Below, one piece after another: positions 1 to 39,490 of a stretch of DNA of 44,030 bases. Positions within the stretch are counted from its first letter, which is position 1. The number at the start of each line of letters is the position of its first letter. The notes beneath the pieces were generated by a model. The model did no database searches and was not told the DNA's origin. It was given only the letters and a program-made list of their open reading frames with translations. The DNA is from a virus. The DNA lies in the IMG/VR virus record IMGVR_UViG_3300018915_000002; one strand, given 5' to 3'. A program made the position numbers and the translations under genes.

Positions 1-3000
1 GCAGAAGTTAATCAAATCTTAAAGAATAAGTCAGCCTTGGATATTACAACTGGGGCTGCAACTCAGTTGAATATTACATTGGGTTCAATTTACAAGAAAA
101 GTTTACCGCAGTATGCTGGAGGCGTTGTAGAGGTCAATGCACGGGCAGCGAGTGCCATCAATGACCTGACTGACCGACTGGAAGACGTAAGGATTTCAGC
201 CGAAGATGTCATTCCAGTAATGAATGTTGTGATGAATACAATCGGGGACGCAGCGAACTTCCCGGTTGACCAAATTGCGGCATTCTCAGCAGCCGTTTCC
301 GCCTTAGGCACGATTGAACCGGAGGCAGCAGGTTCCTTCTTCAACCGTTTTAGTGCAGCGGTTTCTAAGGGTCCTGGTGCTTACGTTGACAATCTAGGAT
401 ACGGCACACTTGATGCATTCAATGAGGCAATCAATACAGACAAACTTGGGGTTGTTATTCGGATTGCCGAGACTTATAAATCAATCAATGGGGAACTTGA
501 GAGAGGAAAATTCCTAGGAAAAGGAGGCTTGGGACTAGGTTCCGCTCAAGACCAAAAGCTCATTCAAGGTCTTGCAAACAATATAGAAGTACTCAACAAA
601 GCACGAGGTGTTGCCCGCCAAGGTTTCTACGGAGAGGCAGGAGAAGATCTCTCGGTGCAAGCGGAATTCAGCCGAGTAATGCAAACGTCATCGTTCCAAG
701 CAGAGCGATTCACAAGGGCAACCGAGGCGCTGAAGCACACGCTGGGACTCGCAATACAAGAGGCCCTTACGCCAGTAATGGAGATATTGTCGAATATCGT
801 CCAAATGGTATTGACTCTAACCCAGAAGTTCCCTGGCATAACTAAGGCGATCGCTCTAACGGCTGTAGCACTAGGGGGACTCGCAACCGCAGCAGGAACA
901 GCAGGGGTAGTTCTCTTTGGACTAGAGCAGGCAGGAGCCGTTGCCTCAGTGGCAATGATTTCCATGCAGCGTTCTATGTTGCCTTTGACAGGCTTCTTCG
1001 CCACGGCTCAGACGGCACTGGCTGCGACAAATCCCCTAGAAACATTCTTCCGCAGTAATACGAAGCTAGCGGCTGATTTCGGACGAGCAGCAACAGGTAA
1101 CTTTGAGGAAACGACAACAGGATTACAGATATTGGGACGGCAGGCAATCAATACCGGACGCGCCGTATTTGCCTTTTCCCGCTCACTGCTCCTTTCTCCC
1201 TTTGGAGTTGCGATTGGTAGCTTTATTCTGCTCAATACCTTGGTTGAGCAAGTTGTACCAGGACTTAATTTATTTGGTGTAGTTTTAGGTGCAATTGCCG
1301 CTCCCTTTGGTTTTATCTGGGGTGTCATCAAGGGAATAACAGAGTCATTTTTATCGTTTTTAGGACTAACTGGTTCTGGGGCAATGAGTGCTATTGCCCC
1401 CATGTTCCAAACGATTAGTAATGCCATTTCGATGGCGGCGCAGTCGTTTACCTTATTTGCCTCTTCTGGGGAAAGGGTAGGACGCGCTCTGGGGAATGCA
1501 ATCCTTTTCCCATTTGAATTTGCCGCACGAAAGATTGTCTCTGTCTGGAATGCCACCCTTGGCGCAATTCGCAACCTCTTGCGTCCGTTCGCTGATTTTG
1601 TTCAGCGAGTTGGACAGATGTTGATTGGATTCCTTGCCGAAGCGTCTCCGGGTCCCACTTACTGGATTCGTCGGAAGTGGGTGGCAACGGTACAGTTCTT
1701 GCAGGGATTGTTTCAGCCCTTGCTTAATGTAGCTACATTTGTCGGATCTGCATTAAACAGCGCCCTATCTCCAGTTACTAGACTGTTCGCTAAACGCACC
1801 TTAGATATTGGAGTTCAGGAAAACAAATTACAAGAAGACGAAGTGGGTGACTTATTGGAGTCACTCATTGCCAAGAAGCTTGGCGCACAATCTATTGCTG
1901 ATCCAGCGGTATCTAAGCAAATTATCGGAACTTTAAGACAGGTAGACTTCTCTGACTCCAATAAGGAGATAGTCGCCCAAATCACTAAAGCGGCTCAAGA
2001 TATCAGCCTAGGTAAGGTGAAGTCTGCGGGAGTTGATTCATTCATAAGCCCATTCACCCTTCGGTTTGCTGATATCAAAAGCAACTGGGGGATGACGAGC
2101 GAGTCAATCACTCAAGGTATTCGCTCTCTTGTTGGTGTCGCCCAAGTAGAAGGGCATTCTCTTCAGTCAGCCCTATCCGAAGCGTCTCCGGGTCCCACTT
2201 ACTGGATTCGCCAGAAGTGGAGCATGACGGTGCAGTTCCTGCAAGGGCTGTTTGTTCGTCTCGGTCAAATGGCGGGAACCGTCAAGAACTCCTTGGTTTC
2301 TATGGCACCTGCGATCGCACAGGCTTTGCCAACGGTAGTTCAACTTGGGGCACTTGCCGCTCGTTTCGCAGGGTTAATTAACCCGATGGCACTACTTGCC
2401 ATATCAACAAGTGTCTTCCTGTTCAAAGGAATACTAAAGGCTGTTAATGGATCGGTTGAGGAAGCAATCCCCACTATCGCTAATACATTGACGATAGGAC
2501 TTGCCGCCATCGCTGGAAGAGCATGGGCTTACGGGATTATTACTCCGATACAGGGGATGGCGGCAATCGGTGGTGGAATCATTGGCAACCTCCTTGCCAA
2601 GGGAATCATTCAACACTTTGATCAAATAAAAAGCACACTTCAAAACGTTATTTATGCGGTTAGAGAGGCAGCCGTTTACATAAAAGGGCAGATTTCAAGC
2701 CTGTTTACGGCTGTCCTGCCCCAACTCCCCAATGCAGTTTCCATTGCGACGGTACTGGCAGAATTGTCAGGCATCATCAATCCCATTCAAGGACTCGCGA
2801 TCGCCATCGGGAACACGATTTTTGGTGGCATTGTTGAATCGATGGGCAAATCCTTGGATGAAGTGATTCCTATATTCATCCGACGCTTTTCCCTGATCGC
2901 CGCATTTGGGGGATTTCTTGCTCAAAGATTGAATTTTATCCAGCCGTTGCAAGCTCGAATTATTGCAGGAATTGCAGTAATGACGGGGCTTTCAACACTT

Positions 3001-6000
3001 TATTTTAAGTCGTTTAGTATTGATGTCACAAATATCTGGCATTCCACGATTCAAGCTATCCAAGGGGACTTACAGGCACTCGCGGGGATTGCTAAGAACA
3101 TAGGATTACTGCTAATCAGCTTCCTTGCTGAAGCGTCTCCGGGTCCCACTTACTGGATTCGAGAGAAGTGGGGGATGACGATAGAGTTCCTCCAGGGTTT
3201 ATTTAGAAGAATTGCGGCGGCTGCCAGTGTGGTCAACCAAGCCTTCCTCAGCATAGGGGATGTTACGGCCGACCAAAGAATGGTGGCGAGGCAGGCGATT
3301 TTTGAAGGGATCATTCTAACCCTAGTTTCTGGAATTAAGTCGCTATTCTACGTCGGACGGGCGCTGACGTGGGTTTATGACAATCTTCAGCGAGTCGTCA
3401 ATAATGCGATCGCCAACTTTGACTTACTCGGCTTTTCTCTCCTGACCGTTGCCTCACTCCCCGCAACAATGGTTCCTCTGCTCCGAGAAGGCTTTGAACA
3501 AGTTATTCCTGAGTTGGCACTTCTCGCGGAGCATGGCATACCGAGAGCAATTGTATTTGGACTCCCCGGTGCGATCGCGATTGCGATGAGTTCTGGGCTT
3601 GTCAAGGGCTTTGAGCAGGGCTTTGCCAATTACGTGGCAGGGATGCCAGCGCGATCTGCTGCTTTCTCTCATGCTGTCTACGGAATGTTCAACCAAGGGT
3701 TGAAGAGTGCTGTAAACCAAGGGCTATCAGAGGGCGTGACCGCGTTTGTTCGCGCTCTACCGGATGAATTGGGAGGTCGAAGTGATTTTACGTTCAATTT
3801 TGATTTTGATGCCGCTTATGCCGCTTATGAAGAACAGCGGAACGCGAGAACACTTGCCCTAGTTAGCTATCTCCAACAGGTAGGAACTGTCGCCAATGAG
3901 GTGGGGGCGCAACTACAGGCAGCATTTGCCCCTATCTTGTCATTCCAGTTTGGTGGTGTTCCGGTCATCCCCTTCTTTAGTGTCATTATCCCGTTCAGGA
4001 ATGCACTTCTAGAACTTGCCACATCACCTGCAATACAGGGGTTCATCCTCTTCTTGAGTGGAACAGTTCTTCCAACGGTTGCAAGAACACTGGCTGCGAT
4101 CGCGACAACCATTGGATTCATCTTTAATACTTTTGTTACGCTACCAGTTGCGGCGGCGATCAATGTATTGACGAGAGAGGCTGTCGCAGCAACACGGGCG
4201 GTTATCCAAGCAGGACTTACCTTTGTCACCGCTATTCCTGCCCTCGTAGGGCAAGCTGTGGTGATGCTTGCCGCGAAAGTGGTGGAGATGATTGCTACTA
4301 CCCTTGCTCGAATTCCCTATATCGGGCAAGCGGTCTCCCAAGCATTCTTGAGTTCCATTAGCTTTCTCGTTGCCACCTCTCAGGTTTACTTCCAGCTACT
4401 AACTCGCTCATTCCAGCGGTTCACAACTCAAATCTGGACGCTACTGGGTCCTACTTATCAACGATTAGCGACTGAGATATTTCAAGGGATTGTTTACGGG
4501 TTCCAGCAGGGTGTCAGACCCGCTGCCGCTATCGTTGGTCGATTGGTCGCTGGGATATTTGACCCTCGCACAATCGGACGGTTCCTGAGTCTCTACATCA
4601 GAACAGGTGGATTCCGCCAGATCTTTAAGCCTGGATTATTTGCAATTAACCCAATTGACATTTTCTTTGGTGGGATTCCGGGGATATCCAAGTCCATGAG
4701 ATGGTTGGCATTAGCTTTGTTCCGTATCCAATTCCCTGTGGATGTCATTTCCAAGAAGACGGAAGAAGTTGTTCAGATATTTGCGCTTCAGTCAGATCGG
4801 ATACAAGCGGAACTGATGTCTAAAAGGTTGGATAGGACGATCTTAGTGCCGCTAGAAACCATCATCAAGTCACAACCTGCAATTGGGCGCTTCTTCTTAG
4901 AGGTGTACCGAGGAATATTGCTAATCAACCCCCTTTCCCAAATCCTAGGCAGGATAGCGCTGACTACCTTGTTCTGGTACTCCGTCCTCAAGCCGATTAC
5001 CCCAGAGATGTTCCGGGCAATTGAAGCAACTGAGTTTTTGGGTGTATCCCTTGCTCCTGTTGCGAATATCCTGCGAGGTATGCGTTTTGTGTTCGTGGAT
5101 TTGGGCGAAGGGTTCTTGAAGTTCGTTAAATCGATTCCACCTTTTATCCGTGCCACTCAGCGATTATTCAATTTACTAGGAACAATTACAGGCGTTATTG
5201 TCCATGAAGCCGTCGGCATTACCAGCATCCTGCTCAACATCTTTAAAGCGACGTTCGGTAACCTACTGATTGTTGCTTCCATCGGGTTCGCCGGACTTTT
5301 GGATCTTGCCCTGATCAACCTCCGGAATTGGGCAAGCTTCCTGCGCCTGAAAACCCAGCAGTATGGGGATGCAATTGTTGCTGCACTTCACGGACACTTT
5401 GGTCCATTGGTTCACCAAATATTTAGTGACATCGCCCAAGGAGTGACGATTGTATTCCAACGGACTGTAGGTGCAGCAGCAAGAGCGATCGCATCAGTTG
5501 CGGTTAATACTTTCCGATTACTGAGTGCAATTGGGGAAGAAACCATTCGGTTTATACGTGACCCATACAACGAAAGCATCCGACTTGCAGGATTATTCCA
5601 AGCTTGGGTCAATGACACATTTGGTGGTATCGCCCAAACCATTAACACCTACATTCGACAACTACAGCTAGATAGATTAGCCCGATTCCTCGGAAACTAC
5701 TGGATTCAACTAGCTGCGATCGCAGATGTTCTACTGCTCGTCACAGGTGTCCTCAATCCTCTCCAATTCGTGATTAGCGCATTAATTGGACTAGGGTTGT
5801 TCCTGGTTAACGAGTACCGCACGGGATTCCAGACCCTGGATGCATTAATCGCGGGACTCGCCAACCCCATTGAATTCGTGACTAACGCCATTAATACGAT
5901 GATCGGGGCGTTAGGAGTCTACATCCCACCAGAACTTACTGAATTTATTGGAGGGGTCACAGAGCAGTTTGTTAAATCTCTCCCCATCATCGCTGGGGGA

Positions 6001-9000
6001 GTCTTCCTGCTTGCCCTCCTCATCCGCAGAAACATTGGACAGGCATTCCAGGATGTCGTCGGTGGGGTGATGAAGATTGTCGGTGGGGTGATGCAAGCTG
6101 TAGACGCGACACGGATCTTTGGTGGAGTAATTCGTGATACGGCATCTAGCGCCCAAGTACAAACCCAAGTGGGTGCTCAAGTTCACCAAGTTCGCCGCAA
6201 AGAATCAGTCCTTGGTATCCGTAACCCCTTTGCTTATTCCCAGAACGAAGATCAGCAGAGACGTGCGACGATGCTTGGGGATGAACGAGTGTCCAAAAGC
6301 AGGGCTGCTTTGCGATATCAAGACGAGATCAATAAGAGCCTGGAGAAAATCACTAAGGAAGAAGAGGCGGAGGTTAAACGGTTGGCGCGATCGCGTAATG
6401 CTCGTGACCAAATCATGGCTTTTGGTGGAAAACTTCAGCGCCCTGATGGGTTCTCGTATGACGTAGCTCCTTTACTTGAGAAGAAGAAGGGGTTGTTTGG
6501 TTTAGAGCGCTTGGAACTGAGTGAAACAGGTCGGGCTAGGGTTGCTGAGGAAGCGAGAAGAAAGATTACATCCCAAGATTCTGACATTGCCAAGCAAACT
6601 CGAATGAGAGCCGCAATGGACTCTGGCTTAGCTACTAGCTTTGTCAAGCATGGTGGAACAATTCCTCCGGATGAAGTCCTCAGGACGCTGGCACAACAAG
6701 GGGATTATGGGGTCACCAACCTCTTGGGTGCCTTTCAAAAAGCAATGGAAAATCTTCATGTTCAGGATTTTCAAGTTGATAAGCTATACGTCGCGGAATT
6801 TTCTCGCCCCAGAAACTTCCCAACTCAAACACCATACAGCCCAGCCGCTTTTGACAACCAGCTAAATAAATTTCAGTCTGACCCTAAATACCAAAAGGAG
6901 GAAGTTATCAAGAAAGGGGTATCCTCCCGTGGGCTTGAAAATCTTTTCTCTAAAGAACTCGCAGCCGCTCACACTCAAATGAAGTCAGCAGCTTATTTTG
7001 CCACTGACTTAACAGCAAGTCTCACCAATGCTTTTAGCGACCTGCCAATTGCCTCCGACAAAGAGATGTCAGAGTACGCCAAGAGACTCGCTGGCAAGAT
7101 GAATAAAAATGAGGAATTTGTAAAAGAACAGAACATAATAATCAACGAATTAATACAAAAACAATTCAAGCAAATTGTCAAGGCTGTTCCTGACTTCAGC
7201 AAAATGGAGGAATCTAACTTGGCTGCACTTAAGGAAGTTCAGCGCAATGTTGAAGGATTTCATCCCGTCGCCACGAATACTGATGTCCTGACCCAAGCTG
7301 TTCGTAATGTGGCAGGGCAAACGCAGTCTGAGGTGGATCAACTAAATAAGACAAGACGCTCTTTCTTTAGTTCACTATTTGGCTTTACCGGAATTCCCCA
7401 ACTCATTGAAAACTTCCAGTACAACCGACGCTTATTCCGTCGTAGCCAACGGATAGCGCGTCGGGTGGAAGAGATGGCAACAGAGGAAAATAAAGAGAGA
7501 GGAGCTACGGCTTCGGCGCGTCAACGTGGACTAGAGGCGTTAATGTCCAATGCTGGATATAGATTCCCAGATCAATCAGTCCAGTTCTATGCTGCTAAGC
7601 AAATTAATGCCCAAGAGCAAGCATTTATTGAATCTTGGATTAAAAATCGCAACTTCAAAGTTGATGTCACTCAACACGAAGCATTCCGTCCGCAAGTGGA
7701 CAAAATACTTGCTAACTTCAAACAACTTTCAACTAATTTAACCCTTAATACTATTGATGATGTTAAAAAGTTCCGACAGACACTTGATGAGGTATCTACA
7801 CAATTAACGAAAGAAGAACAAGCGTCTTTTAAAAAATTGGAACAGTACCTTCTTCATGGAGCATCTGATAAACCGAAGGGTAGTCAAGTATCTTTTAGTG
7901 AACGAGATGATATCTTAGGCGCAATCAATAAAAGCATTGCCAATAACTTAAAAGCCTTTGGCATAACAGGGCAACACAAGGATATCTCCAAGGCTAATTT
8001 TAAAGATCTGCGTGACAAGTATGATGACACGGTTAATCGCCTCACGTCGCGCTTTGTTGGCACTGGGGAATTTATTGCCCAGATTGGGGGTAAGAACGAA
8101 TACATAGAAGGGGCATACAAGGAGCTAGAGAAAAAACTAGGGCTAGGTACGGCAACTGGAGCGTCGTTACGTCAAATCCAGAACATCAAGCTCAAAAACT
8201 CTATTCGTCAGATAGGAGTTAACTTTGGGATATTTGTCGAAGACACCGAAGATCGAGTCACGGAGTTCCGTGACGGGATTTACAAGAAACTTGACAAATT
8301 CCAGGATCGACTAGAAGCTACCCTTCCCTTCCCTAGCTTGGCTCCTCGAATCACCGATCTCCTTCGTCGTCCATTTGAGATGATCTCGAACAATATAGAG
8401 ACTATCTACGCTGCACAGAAGGCAAATATTCAAAATACGGTAAAACAACTTAGATCTGACTTCGTTGGCTCCAACCTTATCAGTCGCATTGACCGCCTTA
8501 ATAAACAGTATAGGGAGGCGAGGGAGGCTTCCTTACAAACTATCTTGCAGTCCTCTAAAGATGAGCGCATCGCTAATTTAGCGCGTCGTGGAGCAGCGAC
8601 TGGGCAGCTAGGGCGAGTCTGGGAAAAACTGAACAAACAGCAATTTACTGACGCTCAATCTGGTCAGACGGTAACAACGCTAATGCGTGGCGCAATGAGC
8701 AAAGAAGCTGTCAGCGCCATGCTAGGGCAAGAGTTGCGACGACAGGGACTCTCAAGAGAACAAGTCTCAACCGAAATTGATAAAGTTCTTAGCCAGTTTG
8801 GGAATCAAACGAGGTATTCAGTCGGTGACATCCTGAAGATGCGGGGACTTGATGTAACTAAGGTATCTAAAGCCCTTGAATCTACTCTCTCCTTACAAGC
8901 CAGTGAAGTTGAGAAAATCATTAAAAATCCCAACTATACGGCTCGCGCTATTGCACCCTTCCAGTGGTTCCTTGTTCGGGATATGCCGGGAATCATTAAA

Positions 9001-15000: not shown

Positions 15001-18000
15001 CTTAAAGATGATGTCCGGAAGTTTGTGACTCAGTTTAGTGAGGGCATGACGGACTTAGGGCGGGCGTTGCGACGATTGGTCGGAGCAATACTCGATGTCT
15101 TTGCCCCTCAGCTTAAGCCTGCACTCAAAAGCGTGATTGCTGATTTTGAGAGTTTTGCCTCCCTGATGCGCTTTGCCGTGGTGGACTTGGTTTCCACCGT
15201 GGTTGAGAGAATGCAACAAATGTACAAGGCAGTGACGGCAAATTCACCTTTTGAGTTAATGGAGAAGGGGTTTAGGAAGGTGAGGCAAGCTGCTAAGTCC
15301 TTCGGCAAGGCATTGCAGCAGTTAGCTGTCTCTACGGGACTTGCTCAGGCACTAGAGCCAGTAGCGGCAGCCCTGGCTCCGATCGCCAGATGGCTTGGAA
15401 TCACGTCAAAGAACGCCAAGACAGTGGGGCAAGCGTTTAGGGAGTCGGGGACTGCTATTTCTTCCACGTTGGCAGACGTGAGGGTGCAGGTTCAAGGGTT
15501 CTTTGGAGGCTTAGCAACACAAGCGAGAGAGTCTGCTGAACAGCTTGTCATTTACTACCGTGCAGCACTAGATGACTTAGCCCAACGCATTCGATCCTCT
15601 TTCCCCTTCCAGATCCTAGAGGGCGGATTTAAGAGAGTGCAGGAAATCGGTTCGGCTGCATTAGCCACAATCCAAGCCAAAGCAGAACAGGTTGGGGCAG
15701 CATTCCGCCACGTCTTGGTTGCCCTCAAATTAGATGTCCCGTTTGACCAAGGAGTTGCCTCAGCTCAAAAGTTTGGAGATCAGTCAGTCATCATCATTGA
15801 CTGGGCGCTCACCACGATGCGGAAGAGGATTGAGCAGGTAACAGACTGGATCAGGCAACAGTTTTCTGCCCTAGGAGATGCGATGGCTAACGCGATCGCC
15901 CAAGCCGTAGCGAAAGTCAACACAACGTTCTCAGGGATTGGGGATGGATTTAAAGCCTCCCTAGAACAGATGGCGGGTCAAGTTGACACAGTAATGGGTT
16001 CTGTTAAAGCCTATGCCTCCAAGGTCATGCTCCCTTACGCACCAATTATTGATGCACTAAAAGACGTGTTTGCTGCACTTCAAAAGATTGCGGGAGCGCT
16101 CGCTGGATTAATTGGTGATATTACTGTCTTTGGTCTCAAGGTTGACACCATCGTCACCGAGGTCATTCTTAACTTTGGCAAAGCAACCTTTGCCATCATG
16201 GATCTTGTCGGGAAGGTTCTTACTCCTTTTGGTTTGATGGGCATTCTCACCGCCCTTGTTAATATCGCTGGGGCAGTCAAAGACTTGATTGTCAATTTCG
16301 GCAAACTGGTGGGCGAAGCGGTTCCAGTCCTAGGGGCATTGGGTAACGCAATTAAAGACTTACTATTAATCCCCTTAGAAGCGATTGGTTCTGTTTGGAA
16401 TAATACGATAGGTAAGATCCAAAGCTCGATGGCAGGGCTTACCAAGAAATCCAAATCCGAGGGAGAGCAGATTGCAGAAGCAGTGGGAGAAGCCCCAGCC
16501 CAAAAATCTCGGCAGTTCTGGAAGCGTAATGCTAAAGGGGTTCAAGCTGACGTTGAAGTGCTAACCGAGGAACTAAAGGTTGAGGGGAAGGAAATTGAAT
16601 CTGCGATAGGAGAGGTGCCAGCCCGTAAATCCTGGCTGCATTGGAAGCGCACTACTCAAGCCATTCAGTCTGAAGTTGAAGCACTCACCGAAGATCTCAA
16701 GATTGAAGGGCATGAGATTCAAGCCGCTATATCAGAAGGTTCTCCTGGAACAACCAAGTGGATACGTCATCACTGGAAAAGGACGGGTGACTTCATCCGT
16801 AGCCAGATAGAAGATGTTGCCTCGGTCGCGAAGGGACAAGGAAAGGCTATTCAAGACGAACTTTCAATTCCTGCTGATAAAGCAAAGAAACGCTCTATCA
16901 ATACCCGCGAATTGTATTCCAAGCAAAATATTGAAATAGTTACTCAATATGGATCAAAGGAGCAACAACAAGGCTTTAAAAATCAGATCCAGCAGATGAG
17001 AGCCTACGAAAGGCAGATACAGAAAATTAGGGTACTCAATCAACAGGGGTTATTACCTGGAGATGTAGCTCAACAGAAAGTAGACAAACTTGTAGGGAGG
17101 TATCGTGAAGCCGGAGCCGAAGCCAGAGCTTTATTAGAGCAACTTCAGTCTGGATCTAATGTAGGGGTACAACAGAACCAGCAAGCCGAAGAGATGTCTG
17201 AGCGAAACCAGAAACTCGCGTATACTGCCCAATCCCTCTTCACCTCACTTGGCTCTGCACTATCCAACTTTGCTCCACAGTTGGCGATGCCGATATTCAT
17301 GGTGAACGATTTTATCACCGCCTTCTTCGATATCAAAAAAGCCATTCCTGAAGTCAAGGCGTTGATCCAAGGAACGGAAAGTGTTGCTGTCGCAAGCAAT
17401 ACTGCGATCGCGGTATCGGAAGCGGCTGTCGCTCAAGCGGCTGGCTCTTCAGCGATTGTCTTGGCAACAGGAGCGGCAGAAGCTGGGGCAGCAAAGGCGA
17501 CGGAAGCGACTGTTGTTGGTGGGGCAAATAGCTGGATGGCAGCAACCTATGGATTCCTTGCAACTGCTGCAAAGAGTGCCTACCGATCAATGATCGTTCC
17601 GTTGATTCCCTTCCTGCCGATGATATTGGCTGTATCAGCGGGTATCTTCCTTCTCTACAAGGCGTTCCGCACAAACTTCTCCGGTATTGGAGACGTTGTT
17701 GAGGGAGTTAGCAACTTTATTGAGGATTTCTTTGGCTTACTGTTTTCTGGGGCATGGCGAACGATTTCCTCTATCTTCCTCAATATTGAGCGTCAAATGA
17801 GGGCGATTGGTCGCACCCTCAGAATGGTCGGCAATATCGTGATGGAACCGTTCCGCCCTCTCTTTGCTGCCTTTGGCATCTCTGGGCAACGCTCAGTACT
17901 GGGGAACGCGATGGTGGCGACAGTTAACCTCATCCTCCTCCCTCTGAAGTTGGTTGCAGGAGCGATTAACCTCATCATTAGCCTGCTCGGTGGCTTTATC

Positions 18001-21000
18001 CGAGGAGGCATTGTAATTGGGGGCATTATCCTCAACTTCATTCTGCTCCCCATTCGGCTAATCAACGCCACGATTTACGGCATCTCGATGGGTTTCCATT
18101 CCGCCATGATGGGTGTAAATCAAGCCGTCAACAACCTTCTCCTTATGCCATTGAGTATTGCCATTGGGGTGGCATACGAGGTGGCATCGGCGATCGCGCA
18201 AGTTGGACAAACCATCACGAGGTTTATACTTGCGCCCTTCTTCGCGATTCAAAATGCCATCATGAGGGCGATTAGTCCGGTCGTGGACTTTGTGATGCGA
18301 TCAATTGGAATGATTGCTGGGGCTGCCGCCATCATCTTCACCGTACTGAATCCCGGACTTGTTATCGGGACGTTCATTGCCTTTGTTACCGGAGCAACAC
18401 TTGCTGCACGAGCCATTCAATTTATCCTCGGACTGCCACTTAAGGCGATCGCATTCTTATGGAAAAATACAGTCGGCAAGATTTTAGGCATTACCCAAGG
18501 ATTTGTAGAATCAACAAAAGGCTTTGGAGAACAGCTTAAGATCTTCCTCACTGATCCTACGGCTGCAATTCGAGAAAGCTGGAAGTCAACGATTGAATAT
18601 ATTCAATCCAAGTTATCTGAGCTTGGTATTACAGCGAGGGCAGAAGGACAAGATGTTGCCCGCTCACTAACGCAGGCCCTCCCTGGCACTCAAACGCCCA
18701 GACTACTTGCAGGGACAACGACTCCACCTGCACCGAGGATTTCTCCAGCTCCTCAGCTTGATGCCCATCTGCAAATGTTGGGGTTGAAGCAAGCGCCTCA
18801 AGATATGGCTGAGTTGAAGAGAGCTTATCGTCAGCAATCTAAAATAGCTCATCCAGATGCAGGTGGGGATGCAGAGCAATTCCATCGGGTGCAGAATGCC
18901 TATGATCAACTCAAGGCAAATATGGAATCTCCAACACGGAGTTCCGTGGTAGACACCGCCCCAATTGAACAGGTAGCGAACAAGGTTGGAACTTTATCAG
19001 AACGGATGAGGGGTTTAGGCTCCGGTTTCGGCTCAACTCTTTCCTCAATGGGTGGTGCCATTTCAAACTTCTCCCCTCAACTTGCCGCGCCATTTTTCAT
19101 CCTGAGTGACTTTATCGATGCGATATTGAGCGTAGAGGGCTTGTTACCAGGATTAAAGGCTTTCTTCGCCGGGAAGAAGGCAGCAGCCGTTGCTGATGCG
19201 GCTGTAACGACGGCTGCTAATGGTGCGATCGCATCCTCCAATCTACTTGTTGCTGGCACTTCCGCTTCTACGGCATTAACGGTTACGACGGGAGCCGCGA
19301 CTTCCGCGACTGCGGTAACAACGGAAGCGACGGCGGTGGGAGGAGCCAACAGTTTTATGGCGGCGACGTATGGAATGTTGGCAAATGCCGCACGTTGGGC
19401 TTATAGCCAAATCCTGCTACCGATCCTGCCCCTACTTCCTGCGATATTGGCAATTGTTGCAGTAGTAGGTCTTCTTTACCTCGCATTCAAGACCAATTTT
19501 CTTGGGATTGGAGATGTTATCCGAGGGGTGGTAGGCGGATTCCTCATGGTATTCGGCGTGGTCTGGGGAGTGATGAAAGGAGTATGGGATGCGATCGCCG
19601 AGGTGTTTGGAACCCTACTCAGTTCGTTTGGCGAGATCTTTTCGGCACTGAAAGAACTGGTGGGTGCGATCATGGCTCCCTTCGCTCCTCTGTTTGCGCT
19701 GTTTGGAGGAAGTGGATCAGGGGGTGGCTCACTAGGCGATGCGATTAATGCGACGGTAAAACTCATCCTTCTTCCCGTTAAACTGGTTGCTGATGCTCTG
19801 TCTTGGGTAATTCGAGCCATTACCTTCTTAGTGGTTGGAGCGATCAAGCTAGGTACAGCAATCGTCACCAAAGTTCTTAGCCCCATCACCCAAGCACTAA
19901 GCTTCCTTGCACCTGTGGTTCGACTGATTCGGACGGTCTTAGGGGGTATTGTCGGTGTAACCGCAGGCGTTGTCGTCCTGATTGGATTAATTGGCTTTAT
20001 TGCAACCGTACTCGTTCCTTTAATTGTTGCTGGGGCTACAGCGTTATTCGGCATGGTCATCTCTGGGATGACGTTTTTGATTACGGCAGCCATCCCGGTA
20101 CTGATTCAGGGATTGATTACAGTCGCAACAGTTGCGATACCACTACTGATTAATGCCTTCTTGTTCATTGCGACTGTGGCGATACCTGCAATTATTAGCG
20201 GATTGATTGCGATCGCCACCACTGCCATCCCACTAATCATGGCCGTTTTATCTGGCTTCATCCCCTTTGTTATGGCGGGATTTGCGTTTATCATCACAAC
20301 GATCATCCCTGCTGTTGTCGCTGGATTAGTATTCATCGCCACAGTGGCGATACCAGCAATCATCAGTGGAGTTATCGCCCTAGCTACTGCCGCTATCCCA
20401 TTACTGATTACATTCGCCCCAATCATCCTTGCAGTGCTAGCTATTGTTGCTGCGGTGTGGCTCTTAAAAATAGCCTTTGACTTTGTGTTCAAGAAGATTG
20501 CGGAATTCATTCCTTTTGCCGTGCAAGGATTTCAGCGTATTGCACCAATTATCCTGAGTCCGTTTGTGAAGTTATGGGAGTTGATTAAAAATGTCATCAG
20601 CGGGATTGGCAGCTTTTTTGGCAACATCGTTTCAGGTGTTAAAAACTTCTTCCAGAACATACCCTTAGTTGGTCGGTTATTTGGAGGAGGGCAATCAAAT
20701 GAAGGAAAAAATGAGTCCAATATTCAAGAGTTTGCAGGTGGAGGTTTAGTACAAGGACCAGGGGGGCAAGCCGTCCCAGTGGTTGCTCACGCTGGAGAGT
20801 TTGTTGTTAATCCAGAGGCAACTCGCCTAAACATAGGGGTACTAGAATACCTGAACGAAGGTGGGCAGTTAGCACTACCAACTCCTGGCGTGGGCATTAT
20901 GCCACCGATGCCCTTGATACTGCCTATTCCAGTTATTGTGCCAGTGGAGGGAGCAGGTAGTGGGACAACAGTGATAGTTGAGAATTTGAATGTAAACTTT

Positions 21001-21126
21001 ACAATAAATCTCAGTGCCGATAGTGCAAGGGAAGCAGGTAATGAATTCCTGCGCTATATCGAAGACCCACGGTTCAAGAGGGCAGTACGACAGGCATTAC
21101 GTGAATCAGTTGAGACAATGAAATGA
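1..21126 (+). CDS. Giant phage tail tape-measure protein (>7,000 aa, 5'-truncated by the window)
   Basis: Frame is open from base 1; the track start at 37 is an internal TTG. N-terminal segment resembles the TP901/PhageMin_Tail core (TTGAATQLNITLGSIY...QIAAFSAAVSALG...AAGSFFNRF). Long Ala/Gly/Ile-rich amphipathic and hydrophobic stretches with periodic Trp. C-terminal FAGGGLVQGP...VVAHAGEFVVN motif typical of TMPs. Confidence 0.9.
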   Translation, partial: AEVNQILKNKSALDITTGAATQLNITLGSIYKKSLPQYAGGVVEVNARAASAINDLTDRLEDVRISAEDVIPVMNVVMNTIGDAANFPVDQIAAFSAAVSALGTIEPEAAGSFFNRFSAAVSKGPGAYVDNLGYGTLDAFNEAINTDKLGVVIRIAETYKSINGELERGKFLGKGGLGLGSAQDQKLIQGLANNIEVLNKARGVARQGFYGEAGEDLSVQAEFSRVMQTSSFQAERFTRATEALKHTLGLAIQEALTPVMEILSNIVQMVLTLTQKFPGITKAIALTAVALGGLATAAGTAGVVLFGLEQAGAVASVAMISMQRSMLPLTGFFATAQTALAATNPLETFFRSNTKLAADFGRAATGNFEETTTGLQILGRQAINTGRAVFAFSRSLLLSPFGVAIGSFILLNTLVEQVVPGLNLFGVVLGAIAAPFGFIWGVIKGITESFLSFLGLTGSGAMSAIAPMFQTISNAISMAAQSFTLFASSGERVGRALGNAILFPFEFAARKIVSVWNATLGAIRNLLRPFADFVQRVGQMLIGFLAEASPGPTYWIRRKWVATVQFLQGLFQPLLNVATFVGSALNSALSPVTRLFAKRTLDIGVQENKLQEDEVGDLLESLIAKKLGAQSIADPAVSKQIIGTLRQVDFSDSNKEIVAQITKAAQDISLGKVKSAGVDSFISPFTLRFADIKSNWGMTSESITQGIRSLVGVAQVEGHSLQSALSEASPGPTYWIRQKWSMTVQFLQGLFVRLGQMAGTVKNSLVSMAPAIAQALPTVVQLGALAARFAGLINPMALLAISTSVFLFKGILKAVNGSVEEAIPTIANTLTIGLAAIAGRAWAYGIITPIQGMAAIGGGIIGNLLAKGIIQHFDQIKSTLQNVIYAVREAAVYIKGQISSLFTAVLPQLPNAVSIATVLAELSGIINPIQGLAIAIGNTIFGGIVESMGKSLDEVIPIFIRRFSLIAAFGGFLAQRLNFIQPLQARIIAGIAVMTGLSTLYFKSFSIDVTNIWHSTIQAIQGDLQALAGIAKNIGLLLISFLAEASPGPTYWIREKWGMTIEFLQGLFRRIAAAASVVNQAFLSIGDVTADQRMVARQAIFEGIILTLVSGIKSLFYVGRALTWVYDNLQRVVNNAIANFDLLGFSLLTVASLPATMVPLLREGFEQVIPELALLAEHGIPRAIVFGLPGAIAIAMSSGLVKGFEQGFANYVAGMPARSAAFSHAVYGMFNQGLKSAVNQGLSEGVTAFVRALPDELGGRSDFTFNFDFDAAYAAYEEQRNARTLALVSYLQQVGTVANEVGAQLQAAFAPILSFQFGGVPVIPFFSVIIPFRNALLELATSPAIQGFILFLSGTVLPTVARTLAAIATTIGFIFNTFVTLPVAAAINVLTREAVAATRAVIQAGLTFVTAIPALVGQAVVMLAAKVVEMIATTLARIPYIGQAVSQAFLSSISFLVATSQVYFQLLTRSFQRFTTQIWTLLGPTYQRLATEIFQGIVYGFQQGVRPAAAIVGRLVAGIFDPRTIGRFLSLYIRTGGFRQIFKPGLFAINPIDIFFGGIPGISKSMRWLALALFRIQFPVDVISKKTEEVVQIFALQSDRIQAELMSKRLDRTILVPLETIIKSQPAIGRFFLEVYRGILLINPLSQILGRIALTTLFWYSVLKPITPEMFRAIEATEFLGVSLAPVANILRGMRFVFVDLGEGFLKFVKSIPPFIRATQRLFNLLGTITGVIVHEAVGITSILLNIFKATFGNLLIVASIGFAGLLDLALINLRNWASFLRLKTQQYGDAIVAALHGHFGPLVHQIFSDIAQGVTIVFQRTVGAAARAIASVAVNTFRLLSAIGEETIRFIRDPYNESIRLAGLFQAWVNDTFGGIAQTINTYIRQLQLDRLARFLGNYWIQLAAIADVLLLVTGVLNPLQFVISALIGLGLFLVNEYRTGFQTLDALIAGLANPIEFVTNAINTMIGALGVYIPPELTEFIGGVTEQFVKSLPIIAGGVFLLALLIRRNIGQAFQDVVGGVMKIVGGVMQAVDATRIFGGVIRDTASSAQVQTQVGAQVHQVRRKESVLGIRNPFAYSQNEDQQRRATMLGDERVSKSRAALRYQDEINKSLEKITKEEEAEVKRLARSRNARDQIMAFGGKLQRPDGFSYDVAPLLEKKKGLFGLERLELSETGRARVAEEARRKITSQDSDIAKQTRMRAAMDSGLATSFVKHGGTIPPDEVLRTLAQQGDYGVTNLLGAFQKAMENLHVQDFQVDKLYVAEFSRPRNFPTQTPYSPAAFDNQLNKFQSDPKYQKEEVIKKGVSSRGLENLFSKELAAAHTQMKSAAYFATDLTASLTNAFSDLPIASDKEMSEYAKRLAGKMNKNEEFVKEQNIIINELIQKQFKQIVKAVPDFSKMEESNLAALKEVQRNVEGFHPVATNTDVLTQAVRNVAGQTQSEVDQLNKTRRSFFSSLFGFTGIPQLIENFQYNRRLFRRSQRIARRVEEMATEENKERGATASARQRGLEALMSNAGYRFPDQSVQFYAAKQINAQEQAFIESWIKNRNFKVDVTQHEAFRPQVDKILANFKQLSTNLTLNTIDDVKKFRQTLDEVSTQLTKEEQASFKKLEQYLLHGASDKPKGSQVSFSERDDILGAINKSIANNLKAFGITGQHKDISKANFKDLRDKYDDTVNRLTSRFVGTGEFIAQIGGKNEYIEGAYKELEKKLGLGTATGASLRQIQNIKLKNSIRQIGVNFGIFVEDTEDRVTEFRDGIYKKLDKFQDRLEATLPFPSLAPRITDLLRRPFEMISNNIETIYAAQKANIQNTVKQLRSDFVGSNLISRIDRLNKQYREAREASLQTILQSSKDERIANLARRGAATGQLGRVWEKLNKQQFTDAQSGQTVTTLMRGAMSKEAVSAMLGQELRRQGLSREQVSTEIDKVLSQFGNQTRYSVGDILKMRGLDVTKVSKALESTLSLQASEVEKIIKNPNYTARAIAPFQWFLVRDMPGIIKDAAKGFVGTINKIGGGAIAKLAGIVAKDIAVGFKGEFLNTLAKSIRTLSNRLGIGANNLALGMERIVGKNPFSDAVRGFSDFLRARGKATADFLKAQALVPDDTRSLTKLIKNRTIELFKVIGSTIQSAQAAIQAQGGGVFGAIRALFSGLKGFFGKLFNRSSNSQIAQLDNQIQQQRDRAARARERQGRAQSLTDNRVDLWVREAGQKTAQRQYDIARQADAQAARLQRQRSLTEKFSNPRYSPAGGDAARIAGSLMGRIGKTYEETATKLGQRITELRDQRTGVRSQRQGETLAGEQMYTPKSSGGWLPRNLRLDDGVVSSTEYIQSLTTKAFTKLTESAHSTTLKLSNYFKNSALRSETAWEESANHITGKSWWAMTKRAVWTGVKIVTNLNHGAADVTAAAWERSQQSVSQDMHQMAQTAQQTGQQISQSMGQAAQKSTGFLSHIGNSIGRVGKAGMAIGASVTAVGFGAQTAMYSLSTMGLISEETSQQLNKFFEIFTLIGAVGGIATPIITALATSFGAIGSLALAATTGVAAIGGAIAPLIGLGSVAFAPFLVGIAAVAAAMAGLYFAVRTNFLGIGTVVRGIGSLISNALSVPIGFIESAWQGFVDRFGSKLMPIIQPALDIAQGLINALNHNPTEKIPAAWDIAGERIKGVLDSILGAGQAVGNGLVSFFTPIVSLFNPLTSLFKKKDKQQPISTLPEVETTQESPEKGVLGSIMAAIKSLVMLPVNLIKGLADWVASVITGVIKGVITAITGPLQWAAEALRPLQMPIGQIELFFKNLVSIIQSVIYLNGVMRPLAANAISVNATINAIAQFFYSLRSLIQSVEFLYYHVFNRKALVQGMGQGEDAVDPSKGPTNRRTGNKLSGGYVETGGKAIQDLSLGEAAKESVGLFKNIMSIKENTGAVFGGFKTGLNWVGSAWQNTSRMIRGETGTLVADAEVQGYNLQKNLSEGSPGPTFWIRQNWEKTTKALQGWMGDLSGKSKEAGQDIAANLTPDPVTPTPTISPVVDSPRQATGFTALRANAIAAVNAITDEVRASYQVLQSSGIGNIGALIIPGLSQTGRSVRILSGDFWDFGKRAVVALATLNFGELSGAVKDLGGNFGYFTQGVLLGFKQMIGGAIAFGMYTVASISPFLLILGGVAFVAAVILANFLGLRTILGGAFRIGIGLGQILISVISGIVNIGRSLGMVIGGVFLAMRGDFRLLDQGIAQFKASFQEMGRGVLRGLRTIRSSISQILRGIETGITQIFPMFPAWVNQLKGVARAFRNPERAGEIAAEILIGAFNRIKKAIGVIPMLLGRIPGLFRRNLDTATTTVNQFGANIWDTVNRTYRFFRTLTFKGIVKRFTTEFRDLPQFLGRIPGQLATKIEEAIPALKAPFNYLRGFIRGFVRRLAQELPPNIVKAVSTSLQAGTAKVRLTLATLSGQLISAFRELATRLGLEERFNRMIQKVSDRWKGFTAWVKQGNLFNWVPRTTQEVSDLFVATINKIESAWNRFTKWLGVTTLFPSLFNQLERVSRGFSGLMKSLDRKWSELKIKFGVPVFTGFFESLRGLGTKFIDIISDIAGHWEKFAKPLKLPLLQNFFTEVALLGEKFNHVVSFIERKWKGLATFIYTTPLISGVMQGLEYLGSKFNELILFVQLKWKPFVKAISSAQFFPNAFKELRKLGAAIPGLKTTIQNALQDIPQTATRVFNRLTELATAAINKVKKLFSNIFGRQNVGAIEGQPNLKSPLVGAVDHIQERWERFAKSFKSILEPITGFARRVADKLIKALNCSPTVVIPNAWENAVNNITSTLQLLIEPFRRVGKFIVNTFGFAFEFVESLFSSFYKAISPGIEKILASIKRIKQGAVAADEIGSLFQGISGYLERLKNAIKPVTQLFDRFSKKMNASTAEGQQALSMGEGLGRAFGQLTIFLTKFTLQAIPPLLKVLAIIVRITVEIAVFAAKVAYALRFVINYFTRVGFSVADTIASITRFVRSTSKATDQVRGAFNKLKDDVRKFVTQFSEGMTDLGRALRRLVGAILDVFAPQLKPALKSVIADFESFASLMRFAVVDLVSTVVERMQQMYKAVTANSPFELMEKGFRKVRQAAKSFGKALQQLAVSTGLAQALEPVAAALAPIARWLGITSKNAKTVGQAFRESGTAISSTLADVRVQVQGFFGGLATQARESAEQLVIYYRAALDDLAQRIRSSFPFQILEGGFKRVQEIGSAALATIQAKAEQVGAAFRHVLVALKLDVPFDQGVASAQKFGDQSVIIIDWALTTMRKRIEQVTDWIRQQFSALGDAMANAIAQAVAKVNTTFSGIGDGFKASLEQMAGQVDTVMGSVKAYASKVMLPYAPIIDALKDVFAALQKIAGALAGLIGDITVFGLKVDTIVTEVILNFGKATFAIMDLVGKVLTPFGLMGILTALVNIAGAVKDLIVNFGKLVGEAVPVLGALGNAIKDLLLIPLEAIGSVWNNTIGKIQSSMAGLTKKSKSEGEQIAEAVGEAPAQKSRQFWKRNAKGVQADVEVLTEELKVEGKEIESAIGEVPARKSWLHWKRTTQAIQSEVEALTEDLKIEGHEIQAAISEGSPGTTKWIRHHWKRTGDFIRSQIEDVASVAKGQGKAIQDELSIPADKAKKRSINTRELYSKQNIEIVTQYGSKEQQQGFKNQIQQMRAYERQIQKIRVLNQQGLLPGDVAQQKVDKLVGRYREAGAEARALLEQLQSGSNVGVQQNQQAEEMSERNQKLAYTAQSLFTSLGSALSNFAPQLAMPIFMVNDFITAFFDIKKAIPEVKALIQGTESVAVASNTAIAVSEAAVAQAAGSSAIVLATGAAEAGAAKATEATVVGGANSWMAATYGFLATAAKSAYRSMIVPLIPFLPMILAVSAGIFLLYKAFRTNFSGIGDVVEGVSNFIEDFFGLLFSGAWRTISSIFLNIERQMRAIGRTLRMVGNIVMEPFRPLFAAFGISGQRSVLGNAMVATVNLILLPLKLVAGAINLIISLLGGFIRGGIVIGGIILNFILLPIRLINATIYGISMGFHSAMMGVNQAVNNLLLMPLSIAIGVAYEVASAIAQVGQTITRFILAPFFAIQNAIMRAISPVVDFVMRSIGMIAGAAAIIFTVLNPGLVIGTFIAFVTGATLAARAIQFILGLPLKAIAFLWKNTVGKILGITQGFVESTKGFGEQLKIFLTDPTAAIRESWKSTIEYIQSKLSELGITARAEGQDVARSLTQALPGTQTPRLLAGTTTPPAPRISPAPQLDAHLQMLGLKQAPQDMAELKRAYRQQSKIAHPDAGGDAEQFHRVQNAYDQLKANMESPTRSSVVDTAPIEQVANKVGTLSERMRGLGSGFGSTLSSMGGAISNFSPQLAAPFFILSDFIDAILSVEGLLPGLKAFFAGKKAAAVADAAVTTAANGAIASSNLLVAGTSASTALTVTTGAATSATAVTTEATAVGGANSFMAATYGMLANAARWAYSQILLPILPLLPAILAIVAVVGLLYLAFKTNFLGIGDVIRGVVGGFLMVFGVVWGVMKGVWDAIAEVFGTLLSSFGEIFSALKELVGAIMAPFAPLFALFGGSGSGGGSLGDAINATVKLILLPVKLVADALSWVIRAITFLVVGAIKLGTAIVTKVLSPITQALSFLAPVVRLIRTVLGGIVGVTAGVVVLIGLIGFIATVLVPLIVAGATALFGMVISGMTFLITAAIPVLIQGLITVATVAIPLLINAFLFIATVAIPAIISGLIAIATTAIPLIMAVLSGFIPFVMAGFAFIITTIIPAVVAGLVFIATVAIPAIISGVIALATAAIPLLITFAPIILAVLAIVAAVWLLKIAFDFVFKKIAEFIPFAVQGFQRIAPIILSPFVKLWELIKNVISGIGSFFGNIVSGVKNFFQNIPLVGRLFGGGQSNEGKNESNIQEFAGGGLVQGPGGQAVPVVAHAGEFVVNPEATRLNIGVLEYLNEGGQLALPTPGVGIMPPMPLILPIPVIVPVEGAGSGTTVIVENLNVNFTINLSADSAREAGNEFLRYIEDPRFKRAVRQALRESVETMK
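1639..3161 (+). repeat. Three identical 32-bp in-frame repeats GAAGCGTCTCCGGGTCCCACTTACTGGATTCG (1639-1670, 2179-2210, 3130-3161) encoding EASPGPTYWIR
   Basis: Read directly. Diverged copies at 11875-11906 (EGSPGPTFWIR) and ~16735 (EGSPGTTKWIR). Confidence 0.95.
8259..8272. repeat. Palindrome CACGGAGTTCCGTG (in TMP)
   Basis: Perfect CACGGAnnTCCGTG. Confidence 0.85.
13065..13078. repeat. Palindrome CACGGAATTCCGTG (in TMP)
   Basis: Perfect consensus. Confidence 0.85.
18766..18915 (+). other. DnaJ-type J-domain embedded in the tape-measure protein
   Basis: HLQMLGLKQAPQDMAELKRAYRQQSKIAHPDAGGDAEQFHRVQNAYDQLK has the canonical LG..ELKRAYR..HPD..GG..F..V..AY pattern; HPD at 18850-18858. Confidence 0.9.
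18935..18948. repeat. Palindrome CACGGAGTTCCGTG (in TMP)
   Basis: Perfect consensus, read in a different frame from 8259/13065. Confidence 0.85.
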
Positions 21127-22298
21127 TCACTAAATATGATTTACTACGAGTCCAGTTTCTCCAATTTCAATTATTGTGTTGTGAGGCAATTGAACAGATT
21201 TACGTGAGGGATAAACTAGGTCAGTTTGCCAAAGCCAACCAAGGTGAGTGGCAGGGTCAAGGAGAGGAAGCCGCCTTCGACTTTGCTAAAAAATCAGCCA
21301 AGGACTTTTTTGAAGAGTCGCTTAACAATCTATCACCTGAGGCTCAAAACCTTTTACAAGCCTCAAAGGCATATAAGAGTGTAGATAAAAGATTAGAAAG
21401 AGTTGCTAATTTAAAACAGAATCTTTATCCCGCACTAGGGGTGACAAATGAAGGGCTTATCGGTAGTGCAGTTAACGCTGGCATGAATTCCCCTGAGTTT
21501 GTAAAAAACATAGCATTACCCGTTGCTTTGCTCTCTAACTTTTCCCCTAGCCTATCTGAACTAGAAAAGATAAATGATGTAAAAGAATTCAGGGAATTTG
21601 GAGAAGCCAAACTAAAAGAAAAAGAAGCAGAATACGAGGGTAATATCCTTGCTCAAGGGGCTGCTACTCTTGGGAGATCCTATTTAAGGCATCAAACCAA
21701 TATGGATAAGTTTCGGCATCTTGAAGACTACGGAGAAACCGAATGGGTAGGACAAATGGGAAGGATCGGAGCCTTCGGAGTAGACGCAGCTTGGAACATG
21801 ACAACACTTTTAGGGGCTGCTGCCCTCCCCCAAGTGTTTGGAGGTGCGAGGACGTTAGAGGCGATTACTCCTGCGATACAAATGGCAGCAGAAAAAAGGG
21901 TGGTAATACCCGGATTAGTAAAAGAAACCTATGATGTAACAAAGGAAGTGATAGACGAAAAACCAGAAAAGGTTTTACTTGCTTTTGCCGCTGGTGCAGT
22001 AACAGGAAAAGCATTAGAACTAGAACAAGAATTCACCGAAAAGAATCCGGAGGTAGCCGAAAAAGCAAAGGCAATGCTAGGTGAAATGCAAACAGCAGTT
22101 GAAAAAGCGGCTGAATTCAACGATTCAGTTGATGAGGCGATGAAAAAGACTGGAGCTGATGAATTATTTAAAGCAGACGATTTAACGCTTGATGAATTTG
22201 TGGCAGGAGCAAAAGATGTATATCAAGCAATACCTGAAGACAAAAGGGAAATACTCGATAGGCTATCCGATGGCGCTTCAGAGGAAATACTGAATTAA
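21123..22298 (+). CDS. Hypothetical protein, shared-leader paralog family (copy 1)
   Basis: 391-aa ORF with ATGA overlap to the TMP stop; N-terminal YDLLRV...YVRDKLGQFAK. Confidence 0.8.
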   Translation: MITKYDLLRVQFLQFQLLCCEAIEQIYVRDKLGQFAKANQGEWQGQGEEAAFDFAKKSAKDFFEESLNNLSPEAQNLLQASKAYKSVDKRLERVANLKQNLYPALGVTNEGLIGSAVNAGMNSPEFVKNIALPVALLSNFSPSLSELEKINDVKEFREFGEAKLKEKEAEYEGNILAQGAATLGRSYLRHQTNMDKFRHLEDYGETEWVGQMGRIGAFGVDAAWNMTTLLGAAALPQVFGGARTLEAITPAIQMAAEKRVVIPGLVKETYDVTKEVIDEKPEKVLLAFAAGAVTGKALELEQEFTEKNPEVAEKAKAMLGEMQTAVEKAAEFNDSVDEAMKKTGADELFKADDLTLDEFVAGAKDVYQAIPEDKREILDRLSDGASEEILN

Positions 22299-22480
22299 TC
22301 ACTTATCCATCGCAAACAAACCAAGTATCAAGTGTTCCCGATCTATGTAAGACAGGCTCAGCAATGTCACTTTCTTGCGCTTGTGAGAGATAGTGATCAC
22401 AGTCATAATAAAATCAAGCTTCGGAACAACAAAGTCCCTGTCTGAGCTATAGGCGCAACAGCAAATTACCTTTTTATATT

Positions 22481-25703: not shown

Positions 25704-25704
25704 A

Positions 25705-25953
25705 ATGACTTTCAACCAATCCCCCTACGAACTCCTCAAACTGCACGGAATCCTGAATGCGCTTGCCGACTCCGCTGCTGAAGGAGGACTATCCCAACTT
25801 AGCTTTAATACAGGTCTTACTGTAGTCGGCATGGGAGTAGCGGTTGGATTGCTAGGTTTAACAGGAGGAGAAGCACTAGATCAGTGGACAGCATATACCG
25901 TCGATTACGAACTTAAACGAACAGGAAACATCCTCAAAGGAGGCGAACCTTAA
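25705..25953 (+). CDS. Short, internally deleted member of the paralog family (possible pseudogene)
   Basis: 82 aa; YELLKL leader joined directly to EGGLSQLSFNTGL, which matches KGGLSQLAFSTSL late in the 279-aa paralog. Confidence 0.6.
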   Translation: MTFNQSPYELLKLHGILNALADSAAEGGLSQLSFNTGLTVVGMGVAVGLLGLTGGEALDQWTAYTVDYELKRTGNILKGGEP

Positions 25954-27297: not shown

Positions 27298-27335
27298 AAC
27301 CCCCTTGTATCAGATACGATACAAGGGGGTTTTTG
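27298..27335 (+). terminator. Intrinsic terminator
   Basis: AACCCCCTTGTATC-loop-GATACAAGGGGGTT followed by TTTG. Confidence 0.75.
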
Positions 27336-27346
27336 TATTTAAAGAT

Positions 27347-33679: not shown

Positions 33680-33742
33680 TTACTTAGAAATGCGGTACAC
33701 TCTTATTGTATATAAGTAACGTCCTTCAACAGGAGCAAGTTT

Positions 33743-38238: not shown

Positions 38239-38273
38239 GGGATATACTTTACATTAGTGTTTGGCTTAGTGCA

Positions 38274-39480: not shown

Positions 39481-39490
39481 TGTACTTGGA

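Follow-up and report, generated by a model that had tools for sequence, protein, structure and literature searches.

A 7,320-residue tape-measure protein homolog in a putative contractile-tailed jumbo phage of filamentous cyanobacteria

Tail length in phages is the output of a molecular ruler, the tape-measure protein (TMP), and the greatest length known, nearly 1 µm, belongs to a Thermus phage whose tail does not contract. In the contractile systems of T4, P1, cyanophage A-1(L) and the AFP/PVC particles TMP sizes range from some hundreds of residues up to about 1,100 aa, and the tails measure roughly 100-220 nm. The longest contractile tails known to us, those of phages G and 0305phi8-36, reach about 0.45-0.49 µm, and we know of no description of a contractile tail longer than about 0.5 µm. 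The TMPs of Thermus phages P74-26 and P23-45 are approximately 5,000 aa long. The tail of P74-26, almost a micron in length, is the longest of any known virus (PMC10034513). The Gordonia phages Hotorobo, Monty and Woes combine a TMP of 3,327 aa with a tail of ~540 nm, amounting to 0.16 nm per residue. Here we analysed a stretch of 44,030 nucleotides from the IMG/VR virus record IMGVR_UViG_3300018915_000002 (hereafter the window, to which all positions refer), which holds most of a far longer gene of this kind.

A giant intact frame with homology to tape-measure proteins

From the first base of the window a single frame stays open through 7,041 codons until it meets a stop codon at 21124-21126, with no earlier stop in between. 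The full product is available as a database protein of 7,320 aa (P0002; JGI contig of 242,584 bp), of which residues 280-7320 match the window translation exactly; positions 1-21126 (plus strand) hold the C-terminal 7,041 of its 7,320 codons, and the remaining 279 aa (837 nt) are encoded upstream of it. This bears out the initial annotation, which had described an uninterrupted ORF of at least 7,041 codons starting before the window and had called for recovery of the gene start. The start was taken from P0002 alone, and it agrees with the alignment of the relatives, whose own residue ~250-280 falls on window residue 1.

Mis-assembly of repeats had been named as a possible source of so long a frame. 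A second assembly (ENA, a contig of 242,772 bp) encodes a 7,320-aa product that differs from P0002 by one residue. The sole DNA repeat in the ORF is a motif of 48-95 nt in 3-5 diverged copies, self-BLAST detected no internal duplication of the product at E<=1e-4, and the GC content is even along the ORF (0.45-0.505). Given the agreement of the two assemblies, the absence of long repeats and of duplication, and the even GC, repeat mis-assembly is very unlikely and was rejected as an explanation. A frame of 7,000 open codons cannot have arisen by chance, and the giant frame is a genuine feature and an intact gene. The repeated motif (E-A-S-P-G-P-T-Y-W-I-R in translation) stands in three copies within 1633-3171 (plus strand), with more diverged copies at 11869-11916 and 16729-16776. 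The aromatic residues of the protein display no regular periodicity by autocorrelation, nor are there tandem repeats as in some rulers, which counts against the ruler reading set out below.

Five PHROG TMP families (phrog_4200, 1535, 1272, 58 and 5493) match the giant protein with E-values from 1e-13 to 3e-31. These matches establish it, at the level of sequence, as a TMP homolog, and the earlier reading of the ORF as an exceptionally long TMP held. An N-terminal region resembling the TMP core covers window residues 228-795 (682-2385, plus strand; phrog_4200, E=9e-18). It overlaps with the first ~590 window residues, the part common to all relatives, and the relatives carry PF10145 (PhageMin_Tail) in their N-terminal part. 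A second region with TMP-profile matches extends over window residues ~4242-4924 (12724-14772, plus strand; phrog_1535, E=4e-23; phrog_1272, E=5e-23; phrog_4200, E=6e-19), and over window residues ~4240-5735 PHROG TMP matches include phrog_1535 (E=3e-31) and phrog_1272 (E=2e-25). In the window protein PF10145 stays below its curated cut-off, and the Pfam list of full-length P0002 consists of PF00226 only; the cut-off is reached by relatives P0004, P0005, P0008 and G001 and by the copy on plasmid pC052_F (see below). In two relatives PF10145 matches the giant frame near its N-terminal end (E=9e-45 and 2e-43), once per genome. Otherwise Pfam finds in the giant protein a J-domain plus helical-repeat noise (Apolipoprotein, Baculo_PEP_C) and nothing else, and neither the N-terminal 900 aa nor the C-terminal 199 aa have a sequence match among solved structures.

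The J-domain, an Hsp70 co-chaperone domain, is predicted at 18766-18915 (plus strand), ~710 aa before the C-terminus, with its HPD motif intact at full-length residue 6563. The PF00226 match (E=3.4e-6) scores 27.5 bits against a cut-off of 27.8 and also figures on the precomputed list of P0002; the HPD also lines up in matches to two solved J-domains, 2och and 1hdj (E=1.4e-4). At least 10 of 57 giant relatives keep a J-domain with HPD, mostly at a similar position. Precomputed Pfam annotation marks a J-domain in a few further relatives. Strongly hydrophobic stretches number 29 and make up 16% of the residues; among them is an uninterrupted stretch of 200 residues with a recurring A-I-P motif (full-length 6912-7112; 19897-20499, plus strand), a candidate for the membrane-inserting part. 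By composition and an AlphaFold2 (AF2) sample, full-length residues 2401-3600 (6364-9963, plus strand) form a highly charged (24-30% D/E/K/R), all-alpha central block that is mostly missing from relatives of 4.6-4.9 kaa. A further highly charged block occupies residues 5801-6000.

The giant TMP family and its replicons

A word-indexed protein search returned 30 relatives of 4.6-7.6 kaa, and an exhaustive protein search 64 clusters at 50% identity, in which TMPs of ordinary size appeared with weak E-values only. Over both searches there are 55 proteins of at least 3.8 kaa (up to 7.6 kaa, median 5,684 aa), to which the 8,170-aa copy on the Nostoc plasmid pC052_F is added. In the shorter members the N-terminal ~900 residues are retained along with several blocks towards the C-terminus, and most of residues 900-3600 is missing. 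A comparison of TMP lengths among relatives, as proposed beforehand, reveals a family of 3.8-8.2 kaa whose length is tightly kept within a subgroup of ~4.8 kaa. Twelve members of 4,815-4,940 aa have a median identity of 66% and a median net length difference of 22 aa; one ~4.8-kaa member aligns to the others at only 26-27% identity and with ~1,800 gapped columns, and differs in length by just 41-79 aa. Length is thus kept within the sublineage despite heavy divergence, as a ruler predicts and cargo does not.

Where the source names a host, the TMP relatives come from Microcoleus and Crinalium and the sheath homologs discussed below from Allocoleopsis and Arthrospira. All of these are filamentous cyanobacteria, in line with the cyanobacterial host proposed initially. 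Isolated phage genomes gave no match to the giant gene by megablast or tblastn. An exact search for the window's first 40 bases was likewise negative in viral and genome contigs. With the N-terminal 600 aa as query no related locus was found in genome contigs or metagenome contigs, and the IMG/VR contigs yielded one match, on a contig that is almost entirely the ORF. In the literature we found neither these TMPs described nor pC052_F treated as a phage, nor any mention of a TMP that contains a J-domain. A 'moraphage' paper deals with unrelated Bacteroidota phages.

Plasmid pC052_F of Nostoc sp. C052, retrieved by tblastn, is a complete circular replicon of 223,442 bp on which the 8,170-aa copy is annotated as 'phage tail tape measure protein'. 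Its annotated genes include portal, terminase large subunit, nrdJ, sigma factor, methylases and ParA/ParB; with this gene set pC052_F looks like a jumbo phage-plasmid. It has in common with the window the gene directly after the TMP, a 604-aa gene, a GH19 lysin-like gene and DUF5662. Among its ~40 large proteins no second TMP was found. The five sheath-bearing IMG/VR records searched likewise hold one giant TMP frame each (4,851-6,339 aa); two of the five are rated 100% complete, one of these with terminal repeats. A single TMP per genome in all five IMG/VR genomes and in pC052_F is evidence pointing to the giant protein as the only TMP of its phage.

The sheath, the tube initiator and the genes beside the TMP

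A 1,001-aa protein of pC052_F matches the PHROG tail sheath family phrog_23 (E=5e-18), the protein adjoining it matches the baseplate wedge family phrog_6 (E=6e-9), and there is a weak baseplate hub match (phrog_150, 7e-5). The sheath belongs to a family of 107 members of ~1,000 aa, whose profile matches solved sheaths, T4 gp18 and Afp included, at E=1.4e-20. One member, P0037 (phrog_23, E=7e-16), lies on the 242,772-bp contig that twins the JGI assembly, together with the 7,320-aa TMP and the window's own 590-aa protein; this co-occurrence on one contig indicates that the window's phage has a sheath. For four more sheath/TMP pairs the contigs agree exactly in length. Seven locus tags separate the two genes in Crinalium, and tens of kb lie between them in most relatives. 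The Pfam families for sheath (PF04984), gp25 (PF04965) and Baseplate_J (PF04865) had no match in pC052_F; as PHROGs and the family profile did find the sheath, the silence of these tail models probably reflects divergence. A siphophage-type major tail protein or a second tail module was not found among the ~40 large pC052_F proteins.

A search for sheath and tube genes upstream of the TMP had been proposed. In six relatives no gene is conserved there and none is recognisable as tube or chaperone; the TMP does not directly follow tail-tube and frameshifted chaperone genes. This separation of the TMP gene from the sheath and tube genes, and the lack of a conserved chaperone pair upstream, count against the ruler reading.

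Downstream, a 391-aa ORF (21123-22298, plus strand) starts with an ATG that overlaps the TMP stop (ATGA), which suggests translational coupling to the TMP. Within the Nostoc TMP an internal stretch is similar to residues 97-311 of this ORF (26% identity, E=6e-11). The next four genes are paralogs with a common N-terminal leader ending in G-G-R-F-A-S. The 469-aa gene after the TMP had no credible match in the Atlas. As candidates for tube-initiator or hub genes, those at 21123-26773 were rejected as leader-sharing paralogs.

The better candidate is a 604-aa protein encoded at 27305-29119 (plus strand; database form from M15, 590 aa), 6 kb from the TMP and 47% identical to the product of pC052_F 1631-3343. 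Its AF2 model, built with 12 homologs (pLDDT 67), predicts that residues 66-217 adopt a tail-tube fold, behind which comes a helical C-terminal part. Searches of the model by VIA, Foldseek and the Atlas point to contractile systems: the VIA Z-scores are 10.5-9.1 against the baseplate initiator chains of the Streptomyces and Anabaena CIS, AFP, PVC, T4, P1 and A-1(L), and 6-7 against siphophage parts. The protein is accordingly modelled as a tube initiator of contractile type. A contractile-type tail of the window's phage, as suspected in the initial annotation, is therefore supported by the sheath on the twin assembly and in all five searched relatives together with this tube-initiator fold, whereas the genes directly after the TMP proved to be neither tube-initiator nor hub genes, and no hub-like gene was found in the window.

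Ruler or cargo, and comparison with known systems

A segment of 1,200 aa (full-length residues 1900-3099; window 4861-8460), i.e. 16% of the chain, was modelled with AF2 from an alignment with seven relatives. The model contains ~77% helix and 1.5% strand at low to moderate confidence. Its hydrophobic half consists of long helices of very low confidence, its charged half of helices of 10-50 residues with loops (pLDDT 70-90), so arranged that they may bundle together instead of forming one rod. Foldseek found no PDB fold or known enzyme fold for the sample, returning only non-specific alpha-solenoid rows. On these predictions the giant protein is probably overwhelmingly alpha-helical and hydrophobic, and the J-domain aside it has no recognisable enzyme domain. 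The reservation made at the outset, that much of the protein might be folded cargo, is eased by the lack of an enzyme fold and the helix content of the sample, and kept alive by the short looped helices in half of it.

At 0.15-0.16 nm per residue, the ratio calibrated on the Gordonia phages, 7,320 aa would most likely correspond to a tail of ~1.1-1.2 µm if the usual ratio holds. Processing of the protein, or helices that double back, would shorten it; with half the chain folded back it would still measure ~0.55 µm, above the longest contractile tails cited earlier. By the same ratio we infer tails of 0.7-1.3 µm across the family. As a rough estimate, a 1.1-µm sheath would take ~1,600 copies of a 110-kDa protein and be heavier than the capsid, a point that counts against such a length.

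The reading that we favour, with somewhat better than even confidence, is that the giant protein is the TMP of a ~243-kb contractile-tailed phage of filamentous cyanobacteria and sets a tail of ~1.1-1.2 µm as a ruler. A few TMP copies would fill the tube lumen during assembly, with their C-terminus anchored where tube initiator and hub sit, and polymerisation of tube and sheath would continue until the TMP N-terminus is reached. Contraction would then drive the tube over several hundred nm, enough for the thick polysaccharide sheath and wall of the hosts. After ejection, the hydrophobic segments near the C-terminus could insert in the membrane and form a DNA conduit, and the J-domain might recruit DnaK, either keeping the giant hydrophobic chain soluble or helping to draw it into the new cell.

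An alternative that we regard as possible, if on balance doubtful, is a TMP-derived multifunctional ejection protein, of which only the N-terminal core and the C-terminal anchor act as ruler, for a tail that is ordinary or moderately long. The rest would be folded back into helical hairpins or bundles, cleaved or cargo, and as cargo it would build a long trans-envelope channel or act inside the host, where the J-domain would operate. The ~3,400 central residues that match no PHROG TMP profile speak for such a division, and against a ruler of full length, as do the loss of most of residues 900-3600 in shorter relatives that keep both terminal regions and the fairly confident prediction of the charged block as short looped helices. 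The 29 hydrophobic stretches and the J-domain are unnecessary for measuring, and the leader-sharing paralogs beside the TMP gene are maybe injected cargo. On the other hand, the tube lumen has little space for several copies of a chain with folded domains, full-length relatives are ~4.6 kaa long even at their shortest, length is tightly kept within diverging sublineages, and neither Pfam nor Foldseek (the latter on the 1,200-aa sample) found an enzyme or toxin fold.

The tail might also be long and non-contractile, as in P74-26, with the sheath belonging to another device on the same replicon. We consider this improbable. The distance of the TMP from the sheath gene in most relatives, the TP901-type core typical of siphophages and the three silent Pfam tail families in pC052_F would fit it; yet sheath and TMP homolog are present once each per genome, the two occurring together in all five searched records, the Crinalium genes are near neighbours, the tube-initiator fold 6 kb from the TMP finds its best match in contractile systems, and the large proteins of pC052_F include neither a siphophage-type major tail protein nor a second tail module. 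An artefactual ORF, whether from chimeric assembly or from a pseudogene in decay that no longer yields a single protein, is hardly credible: although the source is a metagenome contig, the two assemblies agree to one residue, long repeats are absent, and intact frames recur in more than 55 independent giant relatives, one of them on a circular replicon that is finished and another in a genome that has terminal repeats. We thus retain the full-length ruler on a contractile tail as our preferred reading. Its extension to a widespread group of 190-245-kb phages and phage-plasmids of filamentous cyanobacteria, with contractile long-stroke injector tails of 0.7-1.3 µm and a J-domain TMP that recruits Hsp70, is put forward tentatively, at clearly less than even confidence.

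If this is true, such tails would be the longest of any virus and more than twice as long as the longest contractile tail known to us. A family of 4.6-8.2-kaa rulers in sheath-bearing phages raises the questions of what length a contractile machine can reach before straight assembly, stability or firing fails; whether stroke length is an adaptation to hosts in thick polysaccharide sheaths; and how a hydrophobic chain of 0.8 MDa stays soluble and threads the tube, given its built-in Hsp70 co-chaperone domain. The proposal is directly testable, as a Nostoc strain in culture harbours pC052_F, a complete replicon of 223 kb that has partition genes. Metagenomes of biocrusts and mats commonly contain the lineage, and phages of the main cyanobacteria of these habitats are almost unknown.

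Among described phages, the Microcoleus jumbo phages named My-WqHQDG and My-ElHQDG (bioRxiv 10.1101/2023.04.12.536658) resemble the present group in their ~239-kb genomes, their filamentous cyanobacterial host, a VOG-annotated sheath of ~940 aa, and genes for DUF932, DUF5662 and a class II RNR. Compared by gene table they differ: theirs lists no tape measure, PF10145 or J-domain, and does list a Baseplate_J match, which is absent from pC052_F (bioRxiv 10.1101/2023.04.12.536658). With the TP901-1-type TMPs (PF10145; PHROGs 4200, 1535 and 1272) the giant protein shares the N-terminal core and a second internal region of profile matches, but it is five to ten times longer, has an embedded J-domain and remains below the PF10145 threshold. 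T4, P1, A-1(L) and AFP/PVC are linked to the window's phage by sheath homology and by the tube-initiator fold (Z 9-10.5), whereas the sheath here is ~1,000 aa long with long insertions. The present gene is 2.2 times longer than those of Hotorobo, Monty and Woes, which are 75-kb siphoviruses with the TMP after chaperone genes, in contrast to a TMP gene set apart from other tail genes. P74-26 and P23-45 likewise have a multi-thousand-residue TMP; their tails, however, are non-contractile, whereas here a TMP of 7,320 aa, with relatives of up to 8,170, would serve a sheath-bearing cyanobacterial jumbo phage. If the ruler rule holds, its tail would be the longest known, far past any described contractile tail.

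Phage genes on a Nostoc plasmid

Plasmid pC052_F of Nostoc sp. C052 (NZ_CP040278.1, loci L002-L006; 223 kb) is labelled a 'non-mobilizable plasmid'; its genes encode a terminase, portal, sheath, baseplate wedge, an 8,170-aa tape-measure protein (TMP), three tail-fibre paralogs, and ParA/ParB. The replicon appears to be a jumbo phage-plasmid whose host is a cultured cyanobacterium, and our literature search did not find it described as such.

Putative virion-associated proteins

Downstream of the TMP gene lie four paralogous ORFs, three on the plus strand (22481-23236, 23236-24645, and 24642-25703) and one on the minus strand (25934-26773), that have a common N-terminal leader (Y-E-L-A-K-L ... 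W-R-x-x-P-V-x-R-x-G-G-R-F-A-S), beyond which their helical and hydrophobic bodies diverge. In pC052_F, the gene directly after the TMP is the counterpart of the 469-aa paralog. One possibility is that all four are packed together with the TMP, as cargo of the virion or as proteins for ejection. The sheath family (P0032-P0137), at about 1,000 aa roughly twice the usual sheath size, carries repeated G-T-G-T-x-F ... G-D-x-I-Y segments (e.g., residues ~210-700 of P0037, from the twin 242,772-bp assembly) that match tail-fibre and structural-protein PHROGs and probably form surface-exposed insertion domains.

A 509-aa GH19 (chitinase class I/endolysin) protein (39491-41020, minus strand; phrog_181, E=1e-19; domain at residues ~110-200) may be a tail-associated lysin, since it is conserved in pC052_F (50% identity), where it adjoins a weak baseplate-hub match.

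Transposons and wider relationships

Two IS200/IS605-type units (33275-35125 and 36970-38681), each with a TnpA Y1 transposase and a TnpB/Cas12f-like gene, interrupt the phage genome; pC052_F also holds many copies of TnpB, IscB, and IS607.

The DUF932 and DUF5662 genes (30358-31386 and 38761-39723, respectively; both minus strand) represent families common to the window and the ~239-kb Microcoleus jumbo phages (bioRxiv 10.1101/2023.04.12.536658). Alongside these two families the latter possess a class II RNR, and the overlap hints at a wider related group.
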